The position numbers were made by a program, and so were the translations under genes. From assembly GCA_038046005.1 (NCBI GenBank), contig JBBSXB010000001.1, positions 52,769 to 116,768 of the forward strand: a DNA stretch of 64,000 nt, given 5' to 3'. The notes beneath the pieces were generated by a model. That model had not been told where the DNA came from. It did no database searches and was given only the letters and a program-made list of their open reading frames with translations. Positions 29,249-55,691 of this stretch are shown in pieces. Each line of letters begins with the position of its first letter. Position 1 is the first letter of the stretch. The DNA is from Nanobdellota archaeon (GTDB taxonomy: Archaea > Nanobdellota > Nanobdellia > Pacearchaeales > GW2011-AR1).

Positions 29249-30019
29249 TTAAAAAGTTGCTAGATAATTTTCATATTGGATTTTTATTAATTTGTAACCA
29301 TACTTTTTAAAAAATTGAATTACTTCTTTATAACAATTGTCATTTATCTCAATAATCACATTTTTTATTCTTTTTTTTGAGAAAAGATTTATTCCACCCT
29401 TTAAAATATTAAATTCTGAACCATCAACATCTATTTTAATCAAATCAATTTCCTTATTCTTAAAAAGATTATCCAATGTGTCTGTTTTAACTATTTCGAA
29501 TCCCTCACGTAGCCAATTATTAAACTTCTCTCTGCCTTTTCTGTTGCTTAATCCTACCCTAATTGGATAAACATTCTTGAGATTATTTAGGGATATGTTT
29601 TTATTCAATGTAATAAAATTCTTCTTATCAACTTCTATCGGAAACACCTCTGCATTAGGATTAACTTTACTAGCAAGAATAGTATATTTTCCTATATGTG
29701 CCCCCACATCTACAATAACTTTACTTTTCTTTGCAATTTTTTCAAAAACTTTTCCAGTTTCAAACTCATAAGAACCTGAAACAATATGCAGGTCAAGGCA
29801 TTTCTCCTTGCATAAAAATAAACCATAACCATTGTCTATTATTGTGGGTTTCATTAAAGTGTCTCCCATTGAAAATCTATCTTTCTTAAGAATCAACTTT
29901 TCAATTAGCCTACAAAACAAATATTTTAACTTTTCTTTTTGAACCGAAACATTATCTAAGAAACTGTTGCCCTTTAATTTAATAAATGATTGTAATTTGT
30001 TCATCTTTTCTATATGCAT
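29249..30019 (-). CDS. FkbM-family SAM-dependent methyltransferase
   Basis: 256 aa. DVGAHIGKYT and the IEVDKKNF...L.NV-like FkbM signature. Confidence 0.7.
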   Translation of the reverse strand: MHIEKMNKLQSFIKLKGNSFLDNVSVQKEKLKYLFCRLIEKLILKKDRFSMGDTLMKPTIIDNGYGLFLCKEKCLDLHIVSGSYEFETGKVFEKIAKKSKVIVDVGAHIGKYTILASKVNPNAEVFPIEVDKKNFITLNKNISLNNLKNVYPIRVGLSNRKGREKFNNWLREGFEIVKTDTLDNLFKNKEIDLIKIDVDGSEFNILKGGINLFSKKRIKNVIIEINDNCYKEVIQFFKKYGYKLIKIQYENYLATF

Positions 30020-30064
30020 AATTGTGCAGAAGTGATATTTAAAATTATCGGTATAATTAAACCT

Positions 30065-30283
30065 ATGTCAAGAGATAGTATTTTGGACATTACGGAAAAA
30101 ATATTAAAAAGGCTCTCTAACAAGAAAGAGCATACAATAAACAATATTTCAAATGAATTAAAGATTCAATGGAGAACTTCTGTTAAAGTTTTGGAATTTC
30201 TTGAAAGGATAGGTTTAGCTAAAGAAAGAAGGGGTAAAATAACTTACAAACAAGAGAGGTTGTTTAGTATTAGGAAGAAATAG
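30065..30283 (+). CDS. Small winged-helix DNA-binding protein (putative regulator)
   Basis: About 72 aa from the internal Met. ILKRLSNKKEHTINNISNELKIQWRTSVKVLEFLERIGLAKERRGKITY resembles wHTH. Divergent from the FkbM gene. Confidence 0.35.
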   Translation: MSRDSILDITEKILKRLSNKKEHTINNISNELKIQWRTSVKVLEFLERIGLAKERRGKITYKQERLFSIRKK

Positions 30284-30384
30284 TTTTTATATAAATTCTT
30301 AGACATTTCTGTTTAATAAACCAAGCTTTTAAATAAAATCTTGTCTAAGGAAAGTTTTATAATCTCTTATTTCTCTTTTCGATT

Positions 30385-30780: not shown

Positions 30781-30787
30781 AAAAAGG

Positions 30788-31603: not shown

Positions 31604-31663
31604 TTTTTAATAATGCAAAAAGAATATAAAAAGGTTTTTAAAAGTAATCAATGTCAAGTTTAA

Positions 31664-32443
31664 ATGCACTATAAAGAGATAATGCTCCATAGACTTAGAG
31701 ACTTAGACTCAATTTTAAGAGCTAAAAAGAAAACTAAACTGTTTTTGTATGTATTTCTAAGACAAGTTTTTAAGTTAATTGGAATAAATGAAGAAAGAAT
31801 AAAATCTTTGATTGAAAAAAACGAGTCTAAAGTTTTTGGAAATATTTTTTATGTTAGAGAAAAAACTTTAGACTTTCTGTTTGTATCAAAGTATTACGAA
31901 CCAGAAACAACTAATTTTATAAGAAAAACAAAAGGCGATGTTTTTATTGATGTTGGAGCGCACATTGGAAGATATGCTGTTTTGAGTTCTGAAAGTTATA
32001 AAAAAGTTTATGCCATAGAACCTCATCCAGGGAATTTTAAATCTCTTAATAAAAATGTAAAACGCAATAATTTGAAAAACGTTTTTTGTTTAAATTTTGC
32101 TGCTTCTAATTTTGAAAAAACACTTTTTTTGGAAGATTTAAACATAAATACTGGAACAGTGAAAATTGATCCAGATGGTAAAATTAAGGTTAAGGCGAAA
32201 AAACTAGACAACTTGATTAAAAAAAATTCTATAAACGTCAGAGATTTGGGTTTGGTGCTCATTGACGTAGAGGGTCATGAGATTGAGGTCTTAAATGGTG
32301 CAAAGAACATGTTAAAGATAGGCAAGGCAAAACTTATAGTAGAAACTTTTGACTTAGAAAAATTGACCAGATTTCTTGAAAAGTATGGTTACAAAAAAAG
32401 AAGAATTTTCGATTACTACAATTATTTATTCGTAAAAGAATAA
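31664..32443 (+). CDS. FkbM-family SAM-dependent methyltransferase (second copy)
   Basis: 259 aa. DVGAHIGRYAV and the FkbM core. Paralogous to 29249..30019. Confidence 0.7.
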   Translation: MHYKEIMLHRLRDLDSILRAKKKTKLFLYVFLRQVFKLIGINEERIKSLIEKNESKVFGNIFYVREKTLDFLFVSKYYEPETTNFIRKTKGDVFIDVGAHIGRYAVLSSESYKKVYAIEPHPGNFKSLNKNVKRNNLKNVFCLNFAASNFEKTLFLEDLNINTGTVKIDPDGKIKVKAKKLDNLIKKNSINVRDLGLVLIDVEGHEIEVLNGAKNMLKIGKAKLIVETFDLEKLTRFLEKYGYKKRRIFDYYNYLFVKE

Positions 32444-32481
32444 TTACGAAACTTTAAAAATTCTTCCTGCGTGCTAGAGAA

Positions 32482-33342: not shown

Positions 33343-33389
33343 TAGGACAAATAAGTAATCTTTAAAAATAATCTTTTAATTTTATATTA

Positions 33390-34388
33390 ATGGAGATGCT
33401 TTTGATTCTTACAATTTTTATAAGTTTTAGTGTTACGTTTCTGATAATCCCGTACTGGATAAGAAAAGCTAGAGAAAATGGAATGGTTGCAAGAGACATG
33501 CACAAAAATGGAAAAGATGGTGTTGCAGAACATGGAGGAATTCCTGTTTTGTTTGGGTTGACAATCGGAATTTTGTCTTATATTGCTTTGAAAACATTTT
33601 ATTTCAAATCAGATGGTGAAACGATTTTTATTTTTGCATTGCTAAGTTCTGTTTTGATTAGTTCTATTGTTGGCCTTATGGACGATCTTCTCGGTTGGAA
33701 AAAAGGATTATCTAAAAAAATAAGACTTATTGCCATAGCTTTTGCAGCAATACCACTAATGGTAGTAAATGCGGGAGTAGATTCAGTTAGTTTACCTATT
33801 ATTGGAGGGGTTAACTTTGGATTATTATTCCCTCTAGTGATTATACCTTTAGGGATTGTTGGAGCTACAACAACTTTTAATTTTTTAGCAGGTTATAATG
33901 GATTGGAATCGAGCCAAGGAATTTTAATTCTAGGGGCTTTAGCTCTGGCAACATACATTACTGGAAGCAGTTGGGTGACTATTATTTGTTTATGTGGTGT
34001 AGCCTCACTTAGTGCCTTTTACATATTTAACAAACATCCTGCAGACATATTTCCAGGAAATATTTTAACTTATCTCACTGGAACTATGATTGCAGCAGTA
34101 GCGATTATAGGTAATGTAGAAAAAATAGCAATAATTTTCTTTATCCCTTACATTATTCAGACTGTATTGAAAGTAAGAGGAGGATTAAAAAAAGAGAGTT
34201 TTGCTGGTTTAAACAAAGATGGAAGTTTAGAAATGCCATATGACAAAGTATATGGATTAGAACATATAGCAATAGTAGTGTTAAAAAAAATAAGACCAAG
34301 CAAAAAAGTTTATGAAAAAGACGTTGTTTATTTGATAAACATTTTCCAGATTATATTTATTGCAATTGGATTTTTGACAATCTTATGA
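33390..34388 (+). CDS. aglH: Dolichyl-phosphate (UDP-)HexNAc-1-phosphate transferase (AglH/MraY/WecA family, GT4-like)
   Basis: 332 aa, about 10 TM. MDDLLG and NFLAGYNGLE motifs (the NxxxGxDGL of the MraY/WecA family). Confidence 0.8.
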   Translation: MEMLLILTIFISFSVTFLIIPYWIRKARENGMVARDMHKNGKDGVAEHGGIPVLFGLTIGILSYIALKTFYFKSDGETIFIFALLSSVLISSIVGLMDDLLGWKKGLSKKIRLIAIAFAAIPLMVVNAGVDSVSLPIIGGVNFGLLFPLVIIPLGIVGATTTFNFLAGYNGLESSQGILILGALALATYITGSSWVTIICLCGVASLSAFYIFNKHPADIFPGNILTYLTGTMIAAVAIIGNVEKIAIIFFIPYIIQTVLKVRGGLKKESFAGLNKDGSLEMPYDKVYGLEHIAIVVLKKIRPSKKVYEKDVVYLINIFQIIFIAIGFLTIL

Positions 34389-34456
34389 TTATTGTTCTGT
34401 GAATTATACCTTACAAAATCCATAAACCTTTAAAATGCCTTATTCTTAATGTCTAA

Positions 34457-37420
34457 ATGACCGACGAAGAAAATAATGTTGGAAAAGAAAGCGAGAAAAA
34501 AGAATTTAATGAACATGTTCACCACAAAAAAAGCAGTGATGAAATTGATTTTTCCAAGTTTGTTAATGTGGTAAATAAAAATAATTATGTTTTAGTTTTT
34601 TCTATGCTTTCTCTTTTAGCACTAATAGTCAGCATTTTAAGTCTTGCAAAAGCAAATGTTGGAATCAGCGTTGTTAACAATCTGATTAATTTATTTCCTA
34701 CTTGGATTTTTTTGTTTCTTTTTGCAATGCTGATTTTATCATCTATATGTGCTTACTTTGAAAAATATGCAATAATGTTTTTGCCATTGTTGATATGGAT
34801 TATGTTTACAACTGCTTATGTAAGAACATCAAATTTAAGCCAGCTCAAAGATATAACTACTGGAGGCTATACTCTTGGACCAGATTTAGATCCATTCTTA
34901 TACTTAAGAAATGCTCAAGAAATTCTGAGAGGAACTCTCCAAAATCCTGACCCCATGAGATATGTCCCGCTTGGTTCACAAAACTACGCATTTGGTAATT
35001 TAATGCCTTGGGCACTTGTTTTTGTGTTTAAGATATTTTCTATATTTAGCAAAGTATCTCTAGAATATGCGGCAAACGTAACGCCCGTAATTTTCTTTTT
35101 AATATCGATGGTTGGGTTTTTTCTATTTAATAGAAGCATTTTTTCAATAAAATTTTCAAAAAACTTCGCAACAGCCGTAGCTATATTAGCTAGCGCCATT
35201 TATGCATTTTTGCCACAAATGCTCCATAGAACAACTGGTGGAATCCCTGAAATTGAAAGTTTAGGAATGGTTTGGTTTTGGTTTGCGTTGCTATTTTTTA
35301 CACTTGCTTGGAAAAATAAAGATAAGAAAAACTGGATAATTTACGGTGCTATAGCCGGAATCTTCACAGGATTAATGTCTTGGACTTGGGGAGGGTATAG
35401 ATATTTGTATATGGCCATAAGTGCAACTTCGTTTGTGTTCTTTTTATTTGAAAAAAATAGAAAAAAGAATTTTTACATATTCTTATCATGGGCAATTCCT
35501 GCCTTAATTCTAGAATTTTTAAGACTTAAAAGTTTATCAGCAATGATAATTAAAGTGAGTGATACTGGCTCGGCTATATTTATACTGTCCATATTCCTTG
35601 TTGATGTTTTAGTTGTAAAGACAAAACTAAAAGAAAGATTCTTCAAAAAGATACCTTTAAATGGAAGTCTGTTAAGTATAGCTATAGATGTTTTGCTCAT
35701 AATAATATTCTTATTAGTGCTTAATCCTAGTTTCTTGATAAATTCTACTTCAGGATTGATCCAAGGATTACTTTATCCATTTGGAAGAGGAAGAGTGGGA
35801 GTGACTGTTGCAGAAAACAAAGTCCCATATTTTTCAGAGATATTGGGCAATTTTGGAAACTTATTTTGGATTTTCCTCTTAGGAAATTTAGTAATATTTT
35901 GGGAATCTGCAAAAGAACTGAATAAAAAGAAAAGAATAACTCTCACAGCATTCTTTGTGTTATTACTTGCAGGATTATCTTTTTCTAGAATTTCGACAAG
36001 CAATTTATTGAATGGAAATAATCTCTTTTCAGATGTTTTTTACTTAAGTGGAATTATTTTATTTGGTGGTGCCATGGTTTATACTTGTTATAAAGCAAAA
36101 AGATTGAATGATGAGAGCACTTTGGATGGGTTAAAAAAAATAGGAGTTGCTGAAGTTTTAATTTTAGCACTTTCATTTTTTGCATTAGTCTCTACACGTG
36201 GGGCGATTAGATTATTTTTTATAATAGCCCCATTAATTACAATAGTTGTTGCATACATTCCTGTTAGGATAACCAAATCAATAAAAGACAACAGAGAAAA
36301 AGGGAAAAAGAATAATCTTGTTCTTTGGATTTTGTTTTTCGTATCAATACTAGCAATCCTAGGAGTTGGTATAAATAATGCAAACAGCACTTATGCCGAA
36401 GCAAGGTCTACAGTTCCAGGCATTTATGAACAATACTGGCAAAACGCAATGGCTTGGGTTAGAGAAAATACTACTGAAGGAAGTGTATTTGTTCATTGGT
36501 GGGACTATGGGTATTGGGTGCAAACTATTGGAGAACGACCGACAGTAACAGATGGGGGGCACTACATTGATTATTGGGATCATTTAATTGGAAGATATGT
36601 TTTAACTACTCCTTACCCAGAAACAGCACTTAGTTTCATGAAAACACATAATGTATCTTATTTGTTGATAGATGAGACTGATTTGGGAAAATACTCTGCA
36701 TACTCTAGCATAGGAAATGATCAAGACAATAATGACAGAATGTCCTGGATCTCGATGATGTTGCTAGACCAAAAACAAACTCAAGAAACTAGCAATTCCA
36801 CAATAATGGTTTATGCTGGAGGAAGCGCACTTGATGAAGACTTAATCTACAACCAAGGGGATAAAGAAATTTTTCTTCCTGAAGGAAAAGCAGGTTTAGC
36901 CGCGGTGATAATTGAAAACAAAAAATCAAATGAAAGCAGCCAGATTGGACAGCCAGTAGGAATTTTTGTGTATAATGGGCAACAGTTCAGAATTCCGATA
37001 AAAAGAATTTTCTTGAACAATAAGCTGATTAATTTTGATGAAGGAATAAATGCCACTGTCTTTTTGATTCCAACACTAGAGAACGCTCAAAATGGGGGTT
37101 TAAGAATAAACAATCTTGGGGGAATTATTTATTTGTCTAGAAAGGTGCAAGATGGTCTTTTTGCACAGCTTTATCTTATGGATGACCCTTCAAAAGAGTA
37201 TCCAACTCTAAGCTTAGCCCATGTTGAACCAGATCCATTAATAGGCAACATTAAGTCACGTGGAGCGGCAGATTTAGGGGATTTTATATATTACCAAGGA
37301 TTTAGGGGTCCAATGAAAATCTGGAAAGTCAGTTACCCAGATAGCATAATTAGCCGAGAGGAATTCTTGAGAACTGATGGATTATTTGGAGAATTTGATA
37401 ACCTGACTTTTACAAAATAA
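34457..37420 (+). CDS. aglB: Archaeal oligosaccharyltransferase AglB (STT3 family)
   Basis: 987 aa. N-terminal 13-TM region and WWDYGYW motif (VFVHWWDYGYWVQTIG) diagnostic for STT3/AglB. C-terminal periplasmic domain. Confidence 0.85.
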   Translation: MTDEENNVGKESEKKEFNEHVHHKKSSDEIDFSKFVNVVNKNNYVLVFSMLSLLALIVSILSLAKANVGISVVNNLINLFPTWIFLFLFAMLILSSICAYFEKYAIMFLPLLIWIMFTTAYVRTSNLSQLKDITTGGYTLGPDLDPFLYLRNAQEILRGTLQNPDPMRYVPLGSQNYAFGNLMPWALVFVFKIFSIFSKVSLEYAANVTPVIFFLISMVGFFLFNRSIFSIKFSKNFATAVAILASAIYAFLPQMLHRTTGGIPEIESLGMVWFWFALLFFTLAWKNKDKKNWIIYGAIAGIFTGLMSWTWGGYRYLYMAISATSFVFFLFEKNRKKNFYIFLSWAIPALILEFLRLKSLSAMIIKVSDTGSAIFILSIFLVDVLVVKTKLKERFFKKIPLNGSLLSIAIDVLLIIIFLLVLNPSFLINSTSGLIQGLLYPFGRGRVGVTVAENKVPYFSEILGNFGNLFWIFLLGNLVIFWESAKELNKKKRITLTAFFVLLLAGLSFSRISTSNLLNGNNLFSDVFYLSGIILFGGAMVYTCYKAKRLNDESTLDGLKKIGVAEVLILALSFFALVSTRGAIRLFFIIAPLITIVVAYIPVRITKSIKDNREKGKKNNLVLWILFFVSILAILGVGINNANSTYAEARSTVPGIYEQYWQNAMAWVRENTTEGSVFVHWWDYGYWVQTIGERPTVTDGGHYIDYWDHLIGRYVLTTPYPETALSFMKTHNVSYLLIDETDLGKYSAYSSIGNDQDNNDRMSWISMMLLDQKQTQETSNSTIMVYAGGSALDEDLIYNQGDKEIFLPEGKAGLAAVIIENKKSNESSQIGQPVGIFVYNGQQFRIPIKRIFLNNKLINFDEGINATVFLIPTLENAQNGGLRINNLGGIIYLSRKVQDGLFAQLYLMDDPSKEYPTLSLAHVEPDPLIGNIKSRGAADLGDFIYYQGFRGPMKIWKVSYPDSIISREEFLRTDGLFGEFDNLTFTK

Positions 37421-37468
37421 CTTTCTTAGATACATAAAGCTTTAAAATGAGTTTAGTTAAATTTTAAT

Positions 37469-38581
37469 ATGCAAACGAATCATTCTAGAATAGCTGTTGT
37501 AATTGGCACAAAAGCTGAGTTGATTAAATGTATGCCCATAATGGTAGAACTGCAAAAGCAAAAGAAGGATTACTTTTTTATACATACTGGCCAACATCCA
37601 CTAGGCAAGATATGCAAAGACTTTGGAATAAAAAAACCAGATTTTGTATTGAGTCCCGAGCCCAAAATAAGCACAAAATTTTGGTCAAAAATTAACAGAA
37701 TTTCTTTTTTGTGGTTTTTTTCAATGATTTTCAAGATTAAAGAGGTTATAAAAAAGATAAATCCAAAATATGTTGTTTACCATGGCGACACTATGAGCAC
37801 TGCTGCAGCTGCAATAGGGTCCAGTAAAATTATTAATCCTTTAAAAAAATGGACAAACGTACATCTGGAAGCTGGCTTAAGATCAGGCTCATTGTTTGAG
37901 CCTTTTCCTGAGGAAATATCAAGAAGAATTTCAGACTCTTTTTCTGATATCCTCTTAGCAGTATCAGATCTTACAGAAGATAACCTAAGAAAAAGCTATG
38001 GGAATAAAAAAATAATCTTAAAGACTGGCAATACTATTATTGATTCATCTTTGTATACTTACAAAAAAATAGAAAAAAAATTTAAAAAAGAAAAAGAAGG
38101 GTATGTGTTGATCAATATTCACAGACATGAACATCTAAGAAATAAAGAGAATTTAAGAAAAATTGTAGAGGTCATTAACTCTATAAAAACAAAGGGAATC
38201 TGGCCGCTTCATGATAATACAGAATATTATCTTAAAAAGTATGGTCTTTTTGAAAAAATTAATAGAAAAAAAATTTTGATAACACCTTTAAAGACTTATG
38301 AAGAGTTTATTTTTCTTCTTGCAAATTGCAAATATCTCATTGCTGATGGTGGCTCAATCCAAGAAGAAAGCCTTGTTTTTAAAAAACCTTGTTTAGTTCT
38401 AAGAAATAGAACTGAAAGACAAGAAGGACTTAAAACGGGAATTAATTTTCTCACAATGGATGTAAAAAAAGCAAAGGAAATAATAAAAAGTTTAGACAAC
38501 AACAAGATAAAGATTAAACCTTTCAAAAATCCGTACGGAGAACCGGGCTTAAGTAAAAAAATAATTGAAATACTAAGATGA
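37469..38581 (+). CDS. wecB: UDP-N-acetylglucosamine 2-epimerase (non-hydrolysing, WecB family)
   Basis: 370 aa. N-terminal IAVVIGTKAELIKCMPI...HTGQH signature. Confidence 0.8.
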   Translation: MQTNHSRIAVVIGTKAELIKCMPIMVELQKQKKDYFFIHTGQHPLGKICKDFGIKKPDFVLSPEPKISTKFWSKINRISFLWFFSMIFKIKEVIKKINPKYVVYHGDTMSTAAAAIGSSKIINPLKKWTNVHLEAGLRSGSLFEPFPEEISRRISDSFSDILLAVSDLTEDNLRKSYGNKKIILKTGNTIIDSSLYTYKKIEKKFKKEKEGYVLINIHRHEHLRNKENLRKIVEVINSIKTKGIWPLHDNTEYYLKKYGLFEKINRKKILITPLKTYEEFIFLLANCKYLIADGGSIQEESLVFKKPCLVLRNRTERQEGLKTGINFLTMDVKKAKEIIKSLDNNKIKIKPFKNPYGEPGLSKKIIEILR

Positions 38582-46332: not shown

Positions 46333-46333
46333 A

Positions 46334-47389
46334 ATGAAAATTCTTATGATTGCTACATATTACTTGCCCCGAGTTGGGGGTGGAGAGGATACTATAAAAA
46401 ATTATTGCAGGATTTTTAAGAAAAAAGGGCATTATGTAGAGGTAATAACAAAAAAATATGATATGTCGCTTAAAGACACTGAAATAATTGAAGGTGTCAA
46501 GATTCATAGAGTCCCTTACCACAGAAGTAACAAGCTAGGATTGGTTAAATTTTGGAGATGGATGTGGAAAAATAGAGCGAAGTTTAAGGATTTTGATGTA
46601 GTCATGTACAATGATTTTTCAACTTTTTATTGGTATTTACCACTTAAATTTTATTTTAAAAAACCAGATGTTATTTTGTACTACGGGTATGAGGGTTTTC
46701 CGATAAAAATAAAACACAAAATATTAAGAAGAATTGCAAAAGAGTTTACAAAGAAAAGCATTAATGGAGGAAGATATCTTGATAAGTATTACGGATTTAA
46801 AACTGATGATTATATTTATGAAGGTGTAGGGGATATAGAAAAAGTTCCAGTTAGTAAGAAAAAAAATAAGGCGGTTTTTATAGGCGGTCTTAGAAAAGAC
46901 ACATCTATATTGGAATATTTGAAATTCTTGAAGATTTTGAAGCAAAATCATGGCATTAACCTTGGCTTAGATGTCTATGGTGGAGGAGATTTGGATAAAC
47001 TGGCAAAAACATATGCCAAAAATAATAAATTAAATGTTATTTTTCATGGAGTTGTTCCAAATGCAAAGAGGTTCATTCCAATGTATAAATACGGATTTGC
47101 AACTCAATGGGGTTCAATAATGGACTGCATGAGGTCTAGAACATTGATCTTTGCGCTTTGTAAACTTCCAATTACATTAGACTATGACAGAGAGATTCTT
47201 GATGAAGGGCGATATGGAATAATCAGTACAGATCCTGGGGAAATGGTTGATAAGTTTATTAAGTGTTACAAAAATGAAAAACTGTTTAAAGACATAACAG
47301 CTCAAGCTTATGACCACTCAAAAACAAGAACATGGAATAAAATAGCTGGAAAGATACTAACCATATTGGAGCAAGCCATCAAGAGTTAA
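46334..47389 (+). CDS. Glycosyltransferase-like protein (GT4 N-domain, divergent C-domain)
   Basis: 351 aa. N-terminal MKILMIATYYLPRVGGGEDTIKNY resembles the Glyco_trans_4 N-terminus. Confidence 0.45.
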   Translation: MKILMIATYYLPRVGGGEDTIKNYCRIFKKKGHYVEVITKKYDMSLKDTEIIEGVKIHRVPYHRSNKLGLVKFWRWMWKNRAKFKDFDVVMYNDFSTFYWYLPLKFYFKKPDVILYYGYEGFPIKIKHKILRRIAKEFTKKSINGGRYLDKYYGFKTDDYIYEGVGDIEKVPVSKKKNKAVFIGGLRKDTSILEYLKFLKILKQNHGINLGLDVYGGGDLDKLAKTYAKNNKLNVIFHGVVPNAKRFIPMYKYGFATQWGSIMDCMRSRTLIFALCKLPITLDYDREILDEGRYGIISTDPGEMVDKFIKCYKNEKLFKDITAQAYDHSKTRTWNKIAGKILTILEQAIKS

Positions 47390-47420: not shown

Positions 47421-48527
47421 TCAATCAGTTTTGTTAAAAAAATCATCCAAACAACCACACACTCTTTTCTGATCATCCAGAGTTAACTCACCATGAAGAG
47501 GTAGAGAAAGAAGATTGTTGAATAGTAAGCTAGAATTTGTTAGCCCCCCCATATTTTTCAGATTTGCAAACGCTGGTTGAGTATGAAGCGCAAACGTTCC
47601 TATTTGGGATTCTATACCCTCACTGTGCAGATAGGAAATCACAGAGTCTCGTATTCCGTTTTCTTTTAGGAGCACAGTATAGGATTGAAAATTATGTTTA
47701 TTCCCTTCTGAAACATATGGTATTGTAAGGTAGCCTTTTTCCTTTAAAAGTTGGTTATATGAAAACGCTTTTTCTATTCTTCCGGTCACAATTTTTTCTA
47801 ATTTTTTTAATTGTTCCAAACCTATTGCTCCAAGGATGTTGCTAAACTTATAATTTGATCCCAAGGTTACAAATCGACCTTCTTCCATCCCAAAATGTTT
47901 GAAAGAATGCATTTTATTGTAAAGAATCAAATTGTCGGTGGTTATCATCCCCCCTTCACCAGTAGTAATTACCTTCCTGGGATGAAGACTAAAACAGGTA
48001 AGATCAGCAAGCGAACCCACCTTACACCCATCCAATTCTGACCCAAGGCTACATGCAGCATCTTCAATCAAAGGGATCCCAGCATTTTTTGCAAAGTCAT
48101 AGATTTCTTTGTCTAAAGGATTTCCCCCCCATGATACTGGCATAATTGCTTTTATTTTTGGAGTAATAGCTTCCTTTATTGCTTCGAGGGTTACGTTTCG
48201 TGATTTGACATCAACGTCAACAAGAATTGAATCGGCTCCAACAAGCATTACAGCTTCTGCTGTTGCAGGGTAGGTAAAATCTGGCATTACTACTTCATCT
48301 CCAGGGCCAATATTAAGAACTCTTAATGCTAGTTCAAGAGCAATGGTACAATTTGGAACCGCCACAGCATATTTTGCACCGACACTTTTTGCAAATTCTT
48401 CTTCAAATTTTTTAGTCACAACACCTTCAGTCAAAAATTTAGAGTCAAAAACTGCCTTTACTGCATTCAACTCTTCATCCCCCATTGTGGGTCTTGATAA
48501 GTGTATGTATTTTTGATTCTGTCCCAT
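47421..48527 (-). CDS. DegT/DnrJ/EryC1/StrS-family PLP-dependent sugar aminotransferase
   Basis: 368 aa. Characteristic family sequence, including the SxHxxK-like Lys region. Confidence 0.85.
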   Translation of the reverse strand: MGQNQKYIHLSRPTMGDEELNAVKAVFDSKFLTEGVVTKKFEEEFAKSVGAKYAVAVPNCTIALELALRVLNIGPGDEVVMPDFTYPATAEAVMLVGADSILVDVDVKSRNVTLEAIKEAITPKIKAIMPVSWGGNPLDKEIYDFAKNAGIPLIEDAACSLGSELDGCKVGSLADLTCFSLHPRKVITTGEGGMITTDNLILYNKMHSFKHFGMEEGRFVTLGSNYKFSNILGAIGLEQLKKLEKIVTGRIEKAFSYNQLLKEKGYLTIPYVSEGNKHNFQSYTVLLKENGIRDSVISYLHSEGIESQIGTFALHTQPAFANLKNMGGLTNSSLLFNNLLSLPLHGELTLDDQKRVCGCLDDFFNKTD

Positions 48528-48589: not shown

Positions 48590-49366
48590 ATGTATAATCT
48601 ACAAAAAATAATGAAGAATAACCCTTCAAATCTCAAGCAGGTATGGGAAGAATATTACGAAGAGGAAAGTGACACTGCAATAAAAGATAAGCCTTTTTTC
48701 TTGCTGGAAACAGAAACGATAGAAAAAGAAGTTGGAAAAATTGCAGAGAATAAAAAAAAGTTGAGTATCTTGGAGTTAGGATGTGGAACTGGCTTTTTAG
48801 CAAAAAGATTGATAAAAACTGTCTTCAAAAATCAAGAGTACACTTACACTGGAGTAGACATATCAAATAAGGCAATTGATAAAGCAAAAAAAAGAAAAAT
48901 ACCCAAGACTTTTTTCATGGAAGCTGATTTTTTTAATTTTTTTGAGAAAAGCACAAAAAAATATGATTTAATAATCTCCCAGAGATCCATAATGGCATTA
49001 TTAAAAAAGGAAGAGCAACTAAAACTTTTAGGTTTAATTAACTCTAGGCTGACAGATAAGGGCATCGGACTGTTTACAGAGTGTCTACATGAAGCTTCTG
49101 AAGAAATAAATGATTATCGAAAACAATTAGGGATTGAGCCATTTAAAAAAGTTTGGCACAGTAGATACCTGAGAATTGACGAAATAAAACAAATTTTTGA
49201 AAAATACAAGATTGTTGACTTTTGCTCTACTTACTGGCTAATAACAAGAATTATCTACCCTTATTTTAAAGAACCAAAACATAACACCCGTTTGTCTAAA
49301 GTTGTAGCAGAGTTCCCAGAGTCGGGAAAATATGGGCTGGTTAAACTAATAATTGTTCAAAAATGA
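48590..49366 (+). CDS. Class I SAM-dependent methyltransferase
   Basis: 258 aa. LELGCGTGFLAKRL motif I. Confidence 0.7.
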   Translation: MYNLQKIMKNNPSNLKQVWEEYYEEESDTAIKDKPFFLLETETIEKEVGKIAENKKKLSILELGCGTGFLAKRLIKTVFKNQEYTYTGVDISNKAIDKAKKRKIPKTFFMEADFFNFFEKSTKKYDLIISQRSIMALLKKEEQLKLLGLINSRLTDKGIGLFTECLHEASEEINDYRKQLGIEPFKKVWHSRYLRIDEIKQIFEKYKIVDFCSTYWLITRIIYPYFKEPKHNTRLSKVVAEFPESGKYGLVKLIIVQK

Positions 49367-50244
49367 AATCTATTTTGATAACTGGCGGAAGCGGTTTAGT
49401 TGGAAGTAATGTTGCTAAATTTTTTAATAATAAAGGTTATAAAATTTTTACGGTTGATTTGAAAGAAAGTTCATTTAACAACCATATTGTGTGTGACTTG
49501 AGCAAAAAAGAAAATTTAGTAAAGCTGCCAGAGAAAGTTGATTATGTTTTTCATTTTGCGGCGCATGTGGATGAGAAAGATGAAAATAAGGAGTATTTAC
49601 TAAGAAATAACGTACTTTCTACATTAAATGTATTAGAATATGCTCTTAAAAATAAGGTTGAAAAAGTTGTTTATTCCTCAAGCAGTGCAGTCTATGGAAA
49701 GACTGAAGAGTACCCAATAAAAGAAGATTTCTCAAAAAAGCCCCAGTCAATTTACGGAATATCAAAATATTTTGGAGAAGAACTTTGTAATCTCTATCGG
49801 AAAAGAGGGTTGCAAATAATATCATTCAGATTAGGTTATGTTTTGGCTCCAGTAATCCCAGAAAGGTATTTTATTTACAGAATTATGAAAAAACTAAACA
49901 ATAATGAGTGTATCACAATCACAAATGGAGTCAAGAATAGCATGTCATTTGTTGATGTGGAAGACATAGGGGCTTTTTGTGAGGAAGGGTTGAATAAAGA
50001 CCTAACTGGGAATTTTAATCTGACAGGCCAAAGAGAAGTGAATTCAAAAGAGGTCATAGATCTTCTAGTTAAAATGTTTAAAGAATATTCTGGAGAAATT
50101 AAAGAGGAAGAAAATAATTCAATCATGAGAAATTGTTTTTCCAATGAGAGACTTTACTCGACGTTTAATCAGAGGTATAGGCTCGGTATTGAGGATTCTT
50201 TAAACAGAATAGTCGCTAGTTTTAAAGACGGTCTAACGGAGTAA
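49363..50244 (+). CDS. NAD-dependent epimerase/dehydratase family protein
   Basis: 293 aa. ITGGSGLVGSNV and YGISKYFGE (YxxxK). Confidence 0.75.
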   Translation: MKSILITGGSGLVGSNVAKFFNNKGYKIFTVDLKESSFNNHIVCDLSKKENLVKLPEKVDYVFHFAAHVDEKDENKEYLLRNNVLSTLNVLEYALKNKVEKVVYSSSSAVYGKTEEYPIKEDFSKKPQSIYGISKYFGEELCNLYRKRGLQIISFRLGYVLAPVIPERYFIYRIMKKLNNNECITITNGVKNSMSFVDVEDIGAFCEEGLNKDLTGNFNLTGQREVNSKEVIDLLVKMFKEYSGEIKEEENNSIMRNCFSNERLYSTFNQRYRLGIEDSLNRIVASFKDGLTE

Positions 50245-51277
50245 ATCTTGCTTTTAAAGGAACCATATATTTCATGAATATAACTTCTGCAGGAGTTTTC
50301 ATCTTTGTATAGAGTTTGTCTGTAAGTGAAAAATGGGTGACTCTGTTCCCAAACTTAACACTACTTGCATTTGCTACAGTGATCAAAAGAACATCTGAAG
50401 AAGAGCCTTCGATATTTGAGATTACAGTTTTTGGATCTTGTGTTAATAAGATTTTGAATTGATAGTCTCTTGTGGACAGAACATCTTCCCTCGAAGAAGC
50501 ATCTTGTCTTGTGTCAATAGTATAACCACTGTATTTATTAAGATCACGACCAAATTCTCCTAAAAAGTTGGACATCAAGTTTAATTTTTCTTGTATATCC
50601 AGATTTTTATAAGAAGAAAAACCTTCAACCACTTTTGCAGGATTACCTCTAGCAAGCGAGTTTGGGAGGACATCTTTTGTCACATTACTCTGGAAAAGAA
50701 CAATTGCCCTATCTCCGATGGTTACTCCAGGAGAAACATAAACCGAACCTGTAAGCCAAACATCATTTCCTATAGTGACGGGCGCAATAGAATTAACAAC
50801 GCATCCTTCCAATAGTTCTCCATGGTATCCATGAGAGTATATCTCTGAGCGAGCCCCAATACCAACATTATTACCAATTGTTAACCCTCCAGATGAATTA
50901 AGAATAGCATCGCTACCTACCCAGAAATTATGGCCTATTGAAAGAGGTAAGTGACCTTGAAATCTAACTCCGTCCTGGACTGTCGCATAATCACCAATAG
51001 ATAATTTAGGAAGGTAAATCTTACAATTTTCCCACACATCACAAAAATCCCCAAGACTCAATGATTCAAGGTTAATTTTTCTAGAAGAAACAACATTAAC
51101 TCCTCTCCTGATTCTGGTCCCATCACCAACATAAATTTTCTCTCCAGCTAGTGAAACTCCATCTTCAATTATGACATCTTTTCCAATGTATAAATTGGCT
51201 GCTTCAATGTAAGCTCGCTTAGACACTTTTGCAGAATTATCAACGTATGAATTCGTTGCCTTTATATTTTGGGGCAT
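50222..51277 (-). CDS. Left-handed beta-helix (hexapeptide-repeat) acyl/acetyltransferase with ~120-aa C-terminal extension of unknown function
   Basis: 351 aa. Many [LIV]-G-x4 hexapeptide repeats in residues about 20-230. C-terminus has no recognisable motif. Confidence 0.6.
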   Translation of the reverse strand: MPQNIKATNSYVDNSAKVSKRAYIEAANLYIGKDVIIEDGVSLAGEKIYVGDGTRIRRGVNVVSSRKINLESLSLGDFCDVWENCKIYLPKLSIGDYATVQDGVRFQGHLPLSIGHNFWVGSDAILNSSGGLTIGNNVGIGARSEIYSHGYHGELLEGCVVNSIAPVTIGNDVWLTGSVYVSPGVTIGDRAIVLFQSNVTKDVLPNSLARGNPAKVVEGFSSYKNLDIQEKLNLMSNFLGEFGRDLNKYSGYTIDTRQDASSREDVLSTRDYQFKILLTQDPKTVISNIEGSSSDVLLITVANASSVKFGNRVTHFSLTDKLYTKMKTPAEVIFMKYMVPLKARFTPLDRL

Positions 51278-51331: not shown

Positions 51332-52330
51332 TTAAGAATTTTTCGATTCATCTCTCCATTGAATTAATTTTGTTAAACCATAAGGTAAACTGTATACTGG
51401 TTTGAACCCCAACATTTCTTCAGTTTTTTTAGTACTACCAATCCTGTTTTTCACAAGAAGTCTTGCGTCACCTTCACTATAGGGGTTAAATTTAACAGTC
51501 AAATCTGAATTCTTCAATTTAAGTATTAGGTTGCATAATTCTCTAATTGTTGTTTGAACACCCGTACCAACATTAAAAAATTCATCGGATAAAGGTGATT
51601 TAAGCGCAACAATATTGTACCTGGCAACATCTTCAACATAAACAAAATCGTAAGCCTGGGTGCCATCTCCATTTATAATTGGTTGTTCATTTGCATCTAT
51701 TTTGTTAAGCATTATAGGCACAACTCCAGAATAAACCGAGTCTTGATTTTGTCCTGGGCCATAAACATTCATGTACCTTAACCCAACATAATCTAAACCA
51801 AACCTATCATGAAAAGCTCTGCACATTGCTTCACCAGAAATTTTAGTAGCCCCATAAAAATTCCTATTGTTGAAAGGATGATTTTCACTCATTGGAATTT
51901 CAACTGCATCACCATAAACAGAAGCGGAAGAAGAGTAAATAAGTTTACTTATCTTATTTTTTACACAAGATTCAAGAACATTAAACGTTCCTTCTGTATT
52001 TACCTTAAAGGCAGTTCGCGGAAAATCTTTGCAGTGAAGAAGCCACATAGCCGCCAAATGAAAAACATAGTCTACCCCTATCATTGCATCATCGAGGGTG
52101 TCTAGATCATTTATGTTGCCACCATTAGGGTATATAACGCAACGTGAATCCAACAATAATTTTTCTAGATTTTCCATTTTGCCTCTAGAAAAATTATCAT
52201 AGACTACTACTTTGCCAACATTCTCTTTAAGAAGTTCAGAAACAACATGTGAACCAATGAAACCAGCACCACCAGTGACCAAGATTTTTGCCCCATTCAG
52301 ATTGTTTTCCATTTTAGTGAGATTAAACAC
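51332..52330 (-). CDS. UDP-sugar 4-epimerase-like NAD-dependent epimerase (GalE/WbpP family)
   Basis: 332 aa. VTGGAGFIGSHV and YGATKISGE (YxxxK). The alternative start at Met7 (52312) is also plausible. Confidence 0.8.
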   Translation of the reverse strand: MFNLTKMENNLNGAKILVTGGAGFIGSHVVSELLKENVGKVVVYDNFSRGKMENLEKLLLDSRCVIYPNGGNINDLDTLDDAMIGVDYVFHLAAMWLLHCKDFPRTAFKVNTEGTFNVLESCVKNKISKLIYSSSASVYGDAVEIPMSENHPFNNRNFYGATKISGEAMCRAFHDRFGLDYVGLRYMNVYGPGQNQDSVYSGVVPIMLNKIDANEQPIINGDGTQAYDFVYVEDVARYNIVALKSPLSDEFFNVGTGVQTTIRELCNLILKLKNSDLTVKFNPYSEGDARLLVKNRIGSTKKTEEMLGFKPVYSLPYGLTKLIQWRDESKNS

Positions 52331-52388
52331 TTTGCCTAGTAAAAAAAGAATGTTTAAAAGATTTTCGGTATAAAAACGAATGTATTAG

Positions 52389-54278
52389 CTAAATGTTAGT
52401 TGTAGAAACATTCATCTCTTTATACACTCCATTATCAATATAAAGATTATGCCAAACTTCAAAACAGAGCATGTTCCAAATGAGGTTGTATTTTCTTGTT
52501 AATTTTGGAGAAGGTGGAGAAGAAAGTATTTTTTTTATGTAATCTTGATTGATCATTCCCTTTTTAACTAAAACTCCATCAATCAATTTTTGTTGTGCTA
52601 AATCCCTCACTTCACTTATATAAGTTTCAAAATTAGTTGGACCAAAACCTTGTTTAGGTCGATTGATGGAATTTAACCCGATTTTTTCCCGCATAACTTT
52701 TTTTAGAAGATATTTTCCCACACCTCCATTGATTTTTAATGAATGGGGAATCGAAAAAGCAAAATTTATTAAAGTTTTGTTTAAAAAAGGTACTCTGGAT
52801 TCTAGAGAATTAGCCATAGATGTAACATCGTCAACGAATAGGAAATCATCAACCATCTTGACCTTAAAGTCTGCTTTTAACATTTGAGTTAAAACATCAT
52901 TATTGCCCTTGAAAAATTGCTGGTATTTTGATGTTAAATTACTCCATGTAAAATTTTTAAGGGTTTTTCCATATATATCTGAGTATTCTTCTGGAAAGAT
53001 TTTGTCTAGCGACTTTGAAAGCAAGTAGAAATCCGCCTTTTTATTTTGTTTGAGTAGAGAAGACAAAACTTGGCCCAATTCTGCAAAAGAAAGATCATCG
53101 GAACTATTTTTTATTTTGGAAATAAGCAGATCAAATTGCTCTTTAGAAAGAATAACCTTTTGGTCGTTGTTCAAAGCATATAAATACTTGTGATAGTATC
53201 CTGCAAAAAGTTCGTCAGAACCAAGTCCACTCAATACAACTTTAACATGCTTAGATGCTTCCTTTGCAATATAATAAGGATATAAGTTTCTTTTAGGAGT
53301 ATCAGCATACCAAATAAGCTTAGGAAGTTCTTCCAAAAAATTGTCTGAGATTATTATGTTTCGATGATCCACATTTAACTTTGACGCCATTTCTTGTGCA
53401 TGCTTAAATTCATCATTATCTTCGTTGAAACCCATACAAAAAGTTTTTATTTTGTGGGATGAAAATTTAGAAGCATAATAAGTTATTGTACTACTATCTA
53501 TCCCACCAGAAAGGTAGACACCAATTGGTACGTCACTTATTAAATGGGATCTTACTGATTCTTCTAAAAGTTTGGACATATTTTTTTCATAATAAGAAAA
53601 ATCGTAGTTTGTTTCCTTAACTTTTAAATCCCAATATTTAACTATTTTTACCCCATTCTCGGAAATTTTTATAAAGTGGCCCGGAAGTAATTTTTTTATT
53701 CCTTTAAAAAGTGTTCCCTCGAAGGGGATAAATCTGAAGTTCAAAAATTCGTGTGCCGCATTAAGGTCCACTTCCCTTTTTATTTCATCATTTTGTAATA
53801 TTGCTTTAATTTCTGAAGCAAAAAATAACTTGTTATTTTGCAGGATATAGAACAGAGGTTTGATCCCAACAGGATCTCTTACTAGGTATAAATTTTTTTT
53901 GCTGGTGTCCCATAATGCAATAGCAAACATTCCTTCAAAAAGATCAAAGCAGTTCTCCCCATATTGCTCATAAGCATGCACTATTGTTTCCGTATCGGAA
54001 TGAGTTTTGAAAATATGGCCTTTCTTTTCCAATTCCCATTTTAATTTCAAAAAATTATAAATTTCTCCATTATACACTACCCAGATTGTACCATTCTCAT
54101 TAGAGATGGGTTGTTTTCCATTAGAAAGATCGATAATACTCAATCTTCTGTTACCCAGTCCAACAATTTTATCAGAATAATATCCGTAATCATCTGGCCC
54201 CCTGTGAACTAGGGAGTTGGTCATTTTTTTAAGAAGAGGCATATCTTCTGTCCCATAAAAACCAGCAATTCCGCACAT
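52389..54278 (-). CDS. asnB: Asparagine synthase (glutamine-hydrolysing) family amidotransferase
   Basis: 629 aa. N-terminal MCGIAGF Ntn-Cys and SGGIDSS PP-loop motif. Confidence 0.85.
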   Translation of the reverse strand: MCGIAGFYGTEDMPLLKKMTNSLVHRGPDDYGYYSDKIVGLGNRRLSIIDLSNGKQPISNENGTIWVVYNGEIYNFLKLKWELEKKGHIFKTHSDTETIVHAYEQYGENCFDLFEGMFAIALWDTSKKNLYLVRDPVGIKPLFYILQNNKLFFASEIKAILQNDEIKREVDLNAAHEFLNFRFIPFEGTLFKGIKKLLPGHFIKISENGVKIVKYWDLKVKETNYDFSYYEKNMSKLLEESVRSHLISDVPIGVYLSGGIDSSTITYYASKFSSHKIKTFCMGFNEDNDEFKHAQEMASKLNVDHRNIIISDNFLEELPKLIWYADTPKRNLYPYYIAKEASKHVKVVLSGLGSDELFAGYYHKYLYALNNDQKVILSKEQFDLLISKIKNSSDDLSFAELGQVLSSLLKQNKKADFYLLSKSLDKIFPEEYSDIYGKTLKNFTWSNLTSKYQQFFKGNNDVLTQMLKADFKVKMVDDFLFVDDVTSMANSLESRVPFLNKTLINFAFSIPHSLKINGGVGKYLLKKVMREKIGLNSINRPKQGFGPTNFETYISEVRDLAQQKLIDGVLVKKGMINQDYIKKILSSPPSPKLTRKYNLIWNMLCFEVWHNLYIDNGVYKEMNVSTTNI

Positions 54279-54329
54279 TGAAATGAGAATCCTAAAGGCT
54301 TTTTAAAGTATGTTATTACTAAACGCCAC

Positions 54330-55691
54330 CTAATTAAAAGGCAGCTGATATTTTTTAAACCGCGACCATAGAACTAACATTCCCAAATAAAAAAGATTGC
54401 TGATTACTGTAGAGACAGTAACTCCATACACTTTGGCTAGGCTTCCAGAAGAAGCTAAAAGAAAAATAGCTGCTATGTTTAGTAAGATATTTAAGATTAT
54501 TGAAAAGACTAGTGAAAAAATAACTTTTCGCAGTTTTCCCTGTGAAATGTAAAGAGAAGAATAAAGTGAGATTATCGGGGATATCAACAGCACGACAGAG
54601 AATATTCTAAGAATGTTTGCTGATGAAATGTATTCTTCGCCAAAAATGATTTTTACTAAAAGAGGAGAAAAAACTAAAGTGAATAAAAATGCGAATATTC
54701 CAAGCAAAATGGTAATATTACGAGCTTTTTGAAACCCTTTATATAATCTTTTGCCTTTCAATTTTATAAATAGGGGAAAAAGAACACTTGAGAATGTTAA
54801 CAGAGGGATAGCAGAAGTAATCAAACTCAAAGCTGCCCTGTAGTAGGCAATAAATTCTGCGTCAACGAATCTCCCGAGAATTATTATGTCTATATAACCA
54901 AACAAAAGCCCAGAGAGAGTTAAAGCAGATAAAGATATGATAAATTTGTTAACAATACTCTTTTCATTTTTTTTCAATCCATCATTTCTTTTTTTTAGAA
55001 AGTTAATTTCTTTTTTGGCACTAAAAAAAATATACAAAAACACAGTCAAATAGGAAAAAGAAAGTCCAAGGATTACTGAGGCTATCAAAATATCCGAAGA
55101 AAGACGTGATATAAAAAGTAGTATTAGTAATGGCACTATGATAAGACGTAAAACTTGAAAAATAATTTCTTGGAAAAGACCTTTTTTAAAATTGTTTAAA
55201 GCCGGAAAAAGGCTTGCAAAAAGAGAATTCAGAGAATTAAAAGCGATATAAAAGCTTCCAGCAATTAAAGCATAAAATATGGGTTTTTCATAGTAATAAT
55301 TTGCTATAAAATATGATAATAAGATCATAATGAGGATTAATGAGGAGGTTAGAATAACTTTAGTTTTTAATAAGTAAGAAAAATATGCTTTAGACTTTTT
55401 TTCAGCCCTTGATGAAACGACGAATTTTATTAAAGTTTGCCCAATACCGAGATCAGAAAATAATGCAAAAAGAGATATTGTTGAAAGTGCTAAAGAATAC
55501 AACCCAAAAAGTTCAGGCATTAACAATCTTGCAGTAATTATCGTAAATATCAGAGAGCCTATTTTAGAAACTAAAATTGTTGCGGTGGTCCAGCCTGAAT
55601 TTTTAATTGCCTGGCCGGTATTGCCAGAAAAATTTCGCTTCTTTATCCTTATCAACACATCTTGCAAAAAAAAAGGTGTTTTTTTTAACAT
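54330..55691 (-). CDS. Polysaccharide/oligosaccharide flippase (MOP superfamily, Wzx-like)
   Basis: 453 aa, about 12-14 TM, no soluble domains. Confidence 0.6.
   Translation of the reverse strand: MLKKTPFFLQDVLIRIKKRNFSGNTGQAIKNSGWTTATILVSKIGSLIFTIITARLLMPELFGLYSLALSTISLFALFSDLGIGQTLIKFVVSSRAEKKSKAYFSYLLKTKVILTSSLILIMILLSYFIANYYYEKPIFYALIAGSFYIAFNSLNSLFASLFPALNNFKKGLFQEIIFQVLRLIIVPLLILLFISRLSSDILIASVILGLSFSYLTVFLYIFFSAKKEINFLKKRNDGLKKNEKSIVNKFIISLSALTLSGLLFGYIDIIILGRFVDAEFIAYYRAALSLITSAIPLLTFSSVLFPLFIKLKGKRLYKGFQKARNITILLGIFAFLFTLVFSPLLVKIIFGEEYISSANILRIFSVVLLISPIISLYSSLYISQGKLRKVIFSLVFSIILNILLNIAAIFLLASSGSLAKVYGVTVSTVISNLFYLGMLVLWSRFKKYQLPFN

Follow-up and report, generated by a model that had tools for sequence, protein, structure and literature searches.

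A probable agl-type N-glycosylation locus with a conserved core and a replaceable sugar cassette in a Pacearchaeal archaeon

The window analysed here is a stretch of 64,000 nucleotides from a Nanobdellota archaeon (assembly GCA_038046005.1, contig JBBSXB010000001.1, positions 52,769 to 116,768), and its subject is a block of glycan genes at 33390-55691, which is about 22 kb long and consists of 19 consecutive genes separated by gaps of no more than about 100 bp on the map of open reading frames (ORFs). Families were called with Pfam and NCBIfam profiles, and the nearest structural relatives were sought by PDB sequence searches. All 19 genes matched glycan-pathway families, and the ORF map together with Pfam left no ORF without a family inside the block. 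An earlier note, made from the letters without database searches, had outlined a 25-kb N-glycosylation island at 29249-55691. Its ORF coordinates all exist in the ORF map and its family assignments hold in the profile searches, i.e., AglH, the oligosaccharyltransferase AglB with its WWDYGYW motif, WecB, four short-chain dehydrogenases/reductases (SDRs), a DegT aminotransferase, an LbH acetyltransferase, an AsnB-type amidotransferase, a Wzx flippase, a WbuC cupin, an NTP-transferase, a C-methyltransferase and a class I methyltransferase are all present. The borders and one count need correction: the contiguous block is real from 33390 to 55691, but the left 4 kb (29249-33342) is not a glycan block. 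There, two FkbM methyltransferase genes lie among a small winged helix-turn-helix (wHTH) ORF and the genes of prefoldin alpha, an IF-2B-family protein and a membrane protein like SpoIIM. The right border was set too early and leaves out two sugar pseudogenes and a piece of secD, which lie at 55757-57573. The FkbM genes counted with the island thus exist but lie outside the block with housekeeping genes between them, and the GT-B glycosyltransferases are four, not five.

The relatives compared with the window are loci or contigs that carry L-numbers (L009, L091, L096 and so on). Every close homologue of AglB, Wzx and SecD belongs to a metagenome bin that bears the label Pacearchaeota, Nanoarchaeota or Woesearchaeota, and the host is assigned on sequence to the Pacearchaeota/Nanoarchaeota (DPANN). 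The best match of AglB (78%, L091) and that of SecD (93%, L096) both come from one JGI metagenome sample.

At the left end of the block, AglH (33390..34388, +; Glycos_transf_4 3.3e-29) is an AglH/Alg7-type polyprenyl-phosphate HexNAc-1-phosphate transferase, which is the neighbour of AglB in relatives too. It has DD at aa 98-99 and the segment FNFLAGYNGLE, and DD together with AGxNGLE is typical of Alg7/AglH-type GlcNAc-1-P transferases. AglB (34457..37420, +; 987 aa) is an STT3-type oligosaccharyltransferase with PF02516 at aa 144-393 and PF21436 at aa 677-769, that is to say, both the multi-spanning N-terminal STT3 domain and the C-terminal soluble core domain are present; TIGR04154 matches at 8e-26, below the subfamily cut-off, and more than 280 full-length homologues are annotated STT3. 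The WWDYGYW motif (aa 681-687, nt 36497-36517) is aligned with that of Pyrococcus furiosus AglB in the alignment of the C-terminal domains. By inspection, DLDPFLYLR (aa 143-151, nt 34883-34909), PEIES (aa 264-268) and a TIXE-type TVAE (aa 450-453, nt 35804-35815) were located, and a DK-type DLGK (aa 742-745, nt 36680-36691) is aligned to P. furiosus DWAKFNAI, with Tyr four residues after Lys, where Ile or Met is usual. The acidic motifs of the first external loop, the TIXE/SVSE motif of loop 5 and the DK/MI motif are those of the PglB and AglB structures. The third gene, a WecB-type UDP-GlcNAc 2-epimerase (37469..38581, +; Epimerase_2 1.2e-60; TIGR00236 205.3 bits against a cut-off of 210), is 75-81% identical and syntenic in L009, L010 and L091. 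Moreover, the order SecY-EMC3-prefoldin-IF-2B-SpoIIM-AglH-AglB-WecB is kept in L091 (AglB 78%) and in L009 (AglB 66%), and the conserved core is AglH, AglB and WecB (33390-38581), perhaps extending to 39678.

Enzymes of the cassette

To the right of WecB, 16 genes make up the cassette. Among its tailoring enzymes, the clearest assignment by sequence is that of the predicted NDP-sugar 3-C-methyltransferase of TylC3/TcaB9/MtmC type (39683..40942, +; Methyltransf_13, _23 and _14), which matches MtmC (4rv9, 2e-51), TcaB9 and KijD1 over its full length in the PDB, with E-values from 2e-51 to 1e-44, 2e-46 among them. Its N-terminal zinc domain, SAM Rossmann domain and C-terminal Methyltransf_14 domain (PF08421, PF13489 and PF08484) all score above cut-off, C11, C14, C51 and C54 align with the four zinc cysteines of TcaB9, and equivalents of TcaB9 Tyr76, Glu224 and His225 are kept. 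These belong to the residues that were reportedly probed in TcaB9 by the Holden laboratory (Tyr76, His181, Tyr222, Glu224 and His225), with a numbering assumed from the H181N mutant chain.

Around this gene lie four others that appear to belong with it. The RmlD-like NDP-4-keto-sugar reductase, an SDR (40939..41784, -), matches RmlD_sub_bind at 1.7e-41 and TIGR01214 at 129 bits, the cut-off being 224. The extended SDR called SDR328 (42902..43888, -) is a probable, though ambiguous, NDP-hexose 4,6-dehydratase with the motifs STAEVYG and YxxxK; GDP_Man_Dehyd is its top Pfam match (1.4e-60), and it reaches 169 bits with the dTDP-glucose dehydratase model (below the cut-off of 365). The WbuC-family cupin (43929..44408, -; DUF6016) scores 112 bits with TIGR04366 against a cut-off of 42, and the sugar-1-phosphate nucleotidylyltransferase (44505..45215, +) matches NTP_transferase at 1.3e-31 and several NCBIfam models, all below cut-off. 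Homologues of the last enzyme and of the dehydratase-like SDR are found at 65-73% identity in L023, about 10 kb from the L023 secD, where the 73% homologue of the SDR adjoins the NTP-transferase.

In L096, the closest relative by SecD (93%), the genes rmlB-rmlC-rmlD-C-methyltransferase-rmlA-wzx lie directly after secD (L096 11615-17453). The five-gene set of the window corresponds to these counterparts one to one at only about 30% identity, with WbuC in the place of RmlC; of 51 other relatives, 7 likewise have a C-methyltransferase homologue downstream of secD. The set of the window stays below all four RmlABCD equivalog cut-offs and has no dTDP_sugar_isom (RmlC) domain, so to judge by its profiles it may work like an Rml module without being a member of RmlABCD; the genuine rmlB and rmlD of the window, at 55757-57573, are pseudogenes. 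Because the L096 module is its one-to-one analogue, the NTP-transferase, SDR, WbuC, 3-C-methyltransferase and RmlD-like enzymes are predicted to yield an NDP-6-deoxy-3-C-methyl-hexose, with WbuC acting as an epimerase/isomerase.

The DegT-family pyridoxal phosphate (PLP) sugar aminotransferase (47421..48527, -; PF01041 3e-96), whose PLP lysine stands in SLHPRK, scores 265 bits with the PseC model (below cut-off), and in the PDB it prefers perosamine synthase (196 bits) to WbpE (154 bits), with ArnB also above WbpE. It probably aminates at C4, like perosamine synthase, ArnB and PseC. It is followed by a class I SAM methyltransferase (48590..49366, +; Methyltransf_31, _25 and _23), for which the PDB gave no informative relative, and by an extended SDR of 293 aa, SDR293 (49363..50244, +; Epimerase 5.4e-42), an epimerase or reductase with NCBIfam matches far below cut-off.

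The LbH acetyltransferase (50222..51277, -; Hexapep 3.9e-12) is of the O-acetyltransferase (MAT/GAT/WcaF) type: the WcaF model matches at 1.8e-20, the best PDB matches are maltose and galactoside O-acetyltransferases, and the NeuD/PglB-family model gives 48.6 bits against a cut-off of 160.8. With WcaF, MAT and GAT as its best relatives, it does not qualify as an N-acetyltransferase of WbpD/PglD type; its C-terminal part (aa about 231-351, some 120 residues) has no match in Pfam, NCBIfam or PDB sequences. Next to it, SDR332 (51332..52330, -; Epimerase 1.9e-55; motifs SSSASVYG and YxxxK) is a UDP-hexose or UDP-HexNAc 4-epimerase of GalE/WbpP/WbgU type, whose best PDB match is 6dnt (2e-52), followed by WbgU, WbpP and UDP-GlcA 4-epimerase. 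The AsnB-type glutamine amidotransferase (52389..54278, -; Asn_synthase 1.1e-75; GATase_7) reaches 458.6 bits with TIGR01536 (asparagine synthase), above cut-off, and 456 bits with TIGR03108 (EPS-associated amidotransferase), below cut-off, and such scores do not separate a glycan enzyme from a housekeeping asparagine synthase. Since three relatives (L014, L066 and L090) have homologues among their own glycan genes, the comparison favours a glycan role.

The four GT-B glycosyltransferases are spread through the left and middle parts of the cassette: a GT4-like enzyme directly after WecB (38578..39678, +; Glycos_transf_1 1.3e-24), with a 49% homologue in the island of L009, a second one (41781..42878, -; Glyco_transf_4 5.8e-12) with a weak match to Agl16, a third (45208..46332, +; Glycos_transf_1 1.5e-28 and Glyco_transf_4 1.2e-18) and a fourth (46334..47389, +; Glyco_transf_4 9.1e-10 and Glycos_transf_1 6.9e-5). 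The cassette ends with a MOP/Wzx-type oligosaccharide flippase (54330..55691, -; Polysacc_synt 2e-23).

The slot beside secD and the scar at 55757-57573

A scan for SecD in species-representative genomes gave 80 loci, and the 51 with at least 5 kb downstream of secD were used for counting. In 42 of these 51 relatives, homologues of the island's glycan genes lie downstream of secD in varied combinations, and Wzx is often the first gene after secD. After WecB, L009 carries a GNAT gene, CoA-transferases, a deacetylase, a CMP-sugar synthase, a formyltransferase and PseB/NeuB, i.e., nonulosonic-acid genes, and the contents also differ among L009, L091, L096 and L098 in spite of the syntenic core. 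Because the core is syntenic and the gene content after WecB and after secD differs among relatives, the island is understood from this comparison to fill a variable slot between two conserved anchors, aglB-wecB and secD. The model of an integrative element was rejected, since the island has no long direct or inverted repeats around it and the tRNAs lie beyond secF. A further island, at L092 3508-14854, is bounded by a Wzx (59% identical to that of the window) and an STT3 and contains WecG, three FkbM, a radical SAM/SPASM gene and a UDP-galactopyranose mutase gene.

The right end of the slot preserves the traces of an exchange. The ORF at 55757..56551 (-) is an rmlD'::'secD fusion of 264 codons, in which the first 108 codons or so, the N-terminus of rmlD, are joined in frame at about 56210-56239 to the last 158 codons (about 349-506) of a second secD copy. 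In Pfam, the Epimerase/RmlD match ends at aa 108-109 and SecD_SecF_C starts at aa 109, and in alignment the ORF follows L012 RmlD over residues 5-117 and then SecD over residues 351-506. Beside it lies a pseudogene of rmlB (dTDP-glucose 4,6-dehydratase; 56544..57573, -), which is broken into three ORF pieces and was aligned to the intact RmlB of L012 and L096; it has two lesions, a frameshifting insertion of 13 nt close to 57400 and a nonsense codon at 56835-56837, where TGG has become TGA. Next come the resident copies of secD (57654-59174) and secF (59171-60124) (57654..60124, -; SecD_SecF_C), 93% and 91% identical to those of L096. From secF to the exact end of the rmlB pseudogene, window and L096 share a collinear sequence with 83.6% identical nucleotides, and there the homology stops; in L096, rmlB is intact. 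In the tree of SecD C-termini, the resident copy stands with L016, L011 and L014 (81-86%), and the remnant falls into another major clade with L024, L026 and L027 (72-73%), in which wzx commonly follows secD directly. Homologues of Wzx were also tried as a route to the donor of the cassette and were given up, since their best matches are at 57-59% and the SecD proteins of those genomes are unrelated to the remnant.

The earlier note had proposed a test for horizontal origin, and comparative synteny and the scar demonstrate replacement at the level of sequence: part of the island was swapped in from another lineage. As to how, an older cassette of rml type (secD-rmlB-...-rmlD...) would have been overwritten in this lineage by DNA from another Pacearchaeal clade that started inside the donor's secD, and illegitimate joining within rmlD would have left the rmlB pseudogene and the rmlD'::'secD fusion as the scar.

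The geometry of the junction gives no direction by itself, and the exchange might have run the other way, the remnant being the original secD whose 5′ part was replaced by an incoming secF-secD-rmlB-rmlD' from a lineage like L096 or L012. This is quite improbable, since the genes that flank both sides of the island (SecY, SpoIIM and AglB on the left; SecD, SecF, RpoN and an ABC transporter on the right) are about 78-93% identical in amino acids to L091 and L096, which come from a single metagenome sample, and the remnant belongs to another SecD clade. Moreover, the resident copy shares 73% identity with the SecD found in the genome of the 66% AglB and is taken as native for this reason, whereas the remnant is only 59% identical to the resident copy. 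That assembly produced a chimera, either in the island or at its right border (a chimeric cluster was named in the earlier note as something that would undo its case), or that the lesions of the pseudogene are sequencing errors, is practically out of the question: no point in favour was found, and contigs assembled separately from SRR32696707, 709, 711, 712, 680 and 678 are 100.000% identical to the window over 26215-60816. Eight contigs from these six runs overlap and tile the whole island, including the fusion junction and both lesions, and both the exact AglB protein and the exact fusion ORF of the right border were recovered on independently assembled contigs; because the contigs are identical and overlap across this range, the island is not chimeric. 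The frameshift in rmlB, a 13-nt insertion, is no homopolymer slip either. One contig, L007, matches perfectly up to window position 55558 inside wzx, and its final 25 nt (L007 5253-5277) differ; this could be a branch of the assembly graph that stems from a co-existing strain variant.

Proposed pathway, alternative products and known systems

Taken together, the locus is probably an agl-type N-glycosylation locus, in which a conserved core is joined to a replaceable cassette and an older rml-type cassette was overwritten from another Pacearchaeal clade. AglH would start a lipid-linked glycan with HexNAc-phosphate, WecB would supply UDP-ManNAc, and AglB would transfer the finished glycan to Asn of secreted proteins. 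The cassette at about 38.6-55.7 kb would contribute the four GT-B enzymes, Wzx and three sugar-tailoring sets. The first set is the five-gene module predicted to make NDP-6-deoxy-3-C-methyl-hexose; the second, the DegT 4-aminotransferase with or without the class I methyltransferase and SDR293, would lead to a 4-amino-deoxy sugar; and the third, the GalE/WbpP-type 4-epimerase with AsnB and LbH, would give an O-acetylated galacto-configured HexNAc or uronate, whose amidation would require that another source provide a uronate. Four GT-B transferases suffice for about a pentasaccharide. In Pfam, none of the 19 genes matched a Wzy-like polymerase, a regulator of chain length or a ligase, so that with a Wzx flippase and no polymerase the product would be a single oligosaccharide unit and not a polymer; as the block covers initiation, elongation, flipping and transfer without Wzy, an N-glycan is favoured over a polymer. 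The general interpretation of the earlier note is right: the island of this small archaeon, a DPANN member, is centred on AglB and encodes a phosphosugar transferase for initiation, a flippase and glycosyltransferases, as well as enzymes that predict the amino, acetyl and methyl (including C-methyl) modifications. The large investment and the tie to host contact that the note suggested are conjecture. Its specific chemistry has weak support, and the scar, which tells most about the locus, falls a little beyond the interval that it gave.

That prediction was of a di-N-acetylated, amidated uronic sugar. For such a route like WbpA/B/E/D/I, it can be said that the block encodes WecB, DegT and LbH together with a 4-epimerase like WbpP/TviC and an amidotransferase like AsnB/WbpS, and that L098 has a UDP-sugar 6-dehydrogenase directly after secD, so that the dehydrogenases might be encoded elsewhere in the genome. 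However, neither the island ORFs nor the other large ORFs of the 64-kb window include a UDP-sugar 6-dehydrogenase (UDPG_MGDP_dh), no WbpB-type Gfo/Idh/MocA oxidoreductase is found in the 64 kb, LbH is of MAT/GAT/WcaF type, and DegT is nearer to the 4-aminotransferases than to WbpE. The uronic-sugar reading is unsupported for these reasons, and it would also leave the five-gene 6-deoxy/C-methyl module without a role; it is held to be improbable, and a C-methyl-branched 6-deoxyhexose module fits better. Rather less improbable, and still unlikely, is it that the product of the cassette is a non-protein glycoconjugate, such as a glycolipid or an oligo- or polysaccharide of the surface, or else an O-linked glycan, and that aglB merely shares the neighbourhood. 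Glycan genes follow secD in most relatives with or without AglB nearby, the slot of L088 and L081 is free of AglH and AglB, and bacterial O-antigen clusters share the same enzyme families and Wzx. What speaks for an N-glycan instead is that AglH, AglB and the flippase stand in one unbroken block that lacks Wzy, a chain-length regulator and a ligase, and that other Pacearchaeal islands (L092, L009 and L098) are also bounded by STT3 and Wzx.

Several points weigh against the N-glycosylation reading, against the chemistry or against the exchange proposed above. The attachment of the glycan to protein is deduced from gene content. In L088 (12042-22037) and L081 (3895-12421), the SpoIIM-like gene lies about 0.7 kb and about 7 kb downstream of secD, respectively, with no homologue of AglH or AglB between secD and SpoIIM in either and no room for an island in L088; AglB is for this reason not tied to the slot in every lineage, and the block of AglH, AglB and cassette seems to be absent from, or moved out of, the slot in some lineages. 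Most of the sugar enzymes score below the NCBIfam equivalog cut-offs, so that their specificities are inferred only. The methyltransferase has Asp at the position of TcaB9 His181 and Cys at that of Tyr222; the dehydratase-like SDR is nearly as GalE-like (4zrm, 122 bits) as dehydratase-like (best PDB match 2hun, a Pyrococcus dTDP-glucose dehydratase, 126 bits), with TAE in the place of TDE; and the WbuC family has no tested function, while a single-sequence AlphaFold model of the cupin (pLDDT 50.1) was unusable for comparison with cupins of RmlC or FdtA type. As for the exchange, no close donor is among the sampled genomes, the best match of Wzx being 59% and that of the remnant 73%. The comparison of GC and codon usage that the earlier note had recommended as a check on horizontal origin returned no foreign signal, since the island (GC 0.30-0.385, GC3 0.22-0.34) is the same as the ribosomal and Sec genes; the comparison says nothing about horizontal origin.

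Compared with known systems, the layout of oligosaccharyltransferase, initiating transferase, glycosyltransferases, candidate MOP-type flippase and tailoring enzymes is that of the archaeal agl clusters of Haloferax volcanii, Methanococcus and Halobacterium, and the arrangement of oligosaccharyltransferase, initiating transferase, glycosyltransferases and flippase is found in L009 and L092 as well. In haloarchaea, the content of agl clusters differs even between close relatives (PMC11407970). Unlike the characterised clusters, the present one belongs to an uncultured DPANN host, is known from genes alone, and includes a C-methyltransferase of TylC3/TcaB9 type and a WbuC cupin. We know of no characterised agl pathway with a sugar C-methyltransferase of this type or with a WbuC cupin.

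The fixed slot between housekeeping anchors with alternative cassettes also resembles bacterial O-antigen and capsule loci, e.g., galF-gnd in Enterobacteria. The anchors, however, are here aglB-wecB and secD-secF, there is no Wzy, and the probable fate of the product is transfer to protein by AglB, not polymerisation or ligation to lipid A. In Alteromonas, the glycotype islands are replacement flexible genomic islands (PMC3542563). The present locus is like such islands in that recombination took place in or near the flanks and remnants of an earlier cassette lie at the border. Deviant base composition is common in replacement islands and not required; of their marks, slot variability and evidence of exchange are found here, and deviant composition is not.

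With the dTDP-L-rhamnose (RmlABCD) and branched deoxysugar pathways, the five-gene module shares a nucleotidyltransferase, a 4,6-dehydratase-like SDR, a cupin, a 3-C-methyltransferase and an RmlD-like reductase; it departs from RmlABCD in WbuC and in the TAE motif, and from the TylC3/TcaB9/MtmC pathways in the two substituted residues of the methyltransferase. The Pseudomonas aeruginosa routes (WbpA/B/E/D/I and WbpO/P/S) are alike in their WecB/WbpI-like, DegT, LbH, WbpP-like and AsnB/WbpS-like genes, and unlike in the dehydrogenases WbpA/WbpO and WbpB, which are absent from the window, and in the O-acetyltransferase type of its LbH. A literature search returned no paper on such islands in Pacearchaeota or elsewhere in the DPANN, none on sugar C-methyltransferases of these groups, nothing on archaeal sugar C-methyltransferases or on WbuC function, no publication for PDB entries 8VR3, 8VR5, 8VR6 and 9BGP, and no description of DPANN N-glycans beyond gene lists.

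It may be speculated, with considerable doubt, that Pacearchaeota, and perhaps DPANN archaea generally, have a serotype-like slot between aglB-wecB and secD whose cassettes are exchanged between lineages, and that the present cassette puts a 3-C-methyl-branched 6-deoxyhexose on surface proteins by means of a WbuC that replaces RmlC. To our knowledge, this class of sugar has never been reported in an archaeal glycan, and if the idea were true, the orphan WbuC family would gain its first function, that of an RmlC substitute. For DPANN archaea, a life in attachment to host cells is assumed, which makes their surface glycans plausible determinants of host recognition and virus resistance. The locus offers a defined set of enzymes, including the compact five-gene module for a C-methyl deoxysugar and a candidate role for WbuC, and it provides evidence at the sequence level that glycan cassettes move between Pacearchaeal lineages, the diversifying dynamic being that of the O-antigens of bacteria and the agl clusters of haloarchaea. 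The principle is thus a known one, met here in a further group, and no new principle comes to light.

Flanking genes and minor observations

Of the two FkbM-family methyltransferase genes to the left of the block, the first (29249..30019, -) matches Methyltransf_21 at 5.7e-18 and TIGR01444 at 75 bits (cut-off 37.7), and the second (31664..32443, +; Methyltransf_21 1.7e-17) lies between the IF-2B-family and SpoIIM-like genes. They flank the wHTH-prefoldin-IF-2B group in inverted orientation, have the lowest GC in the region (0.27-0.28), and have no counterpart in L091 and L009 where the gene order is otherwise syntenic; on this comparison, the second is regarded as a lineage-specific insertion. 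A recent inverted duplication as the origin of the pair was considered and rejected, their identity being only 35%. Glycan islands of other Pacearchaeal genomes (L092 and L068) contain FkbM genes as well.

Beyond secF, a stand-alone 5S rRNA gene (61036-61150, +) adjoins a cluster of tRNA-Leu/Arg/Gly genes at 60154-60909, and the 64-kb window has no 16S or 23S rRNA gene. At 9899-9997 (-), a 99-nt tRNA match (Rfam, 48.7 bits) without an ARAGORN call is possibly an intron-containing tRNA. A gene like AMP/pyrimidine-nucleoside phosphorylase (10472-11950, -) and the IF-2B-family gene (30788-31603, -) could be the DeoA and ribose-1,5-bisphosphate isomerase pair of archaeal AMP salvage. Finally, the EMC3/TMCO1 (DUF106)-like membrane protein encoded directly after secY (28684-29220, +), which is syntenic in L091 and L088, is a candidate for an archaeal insertase of Oxa1/YidC type.

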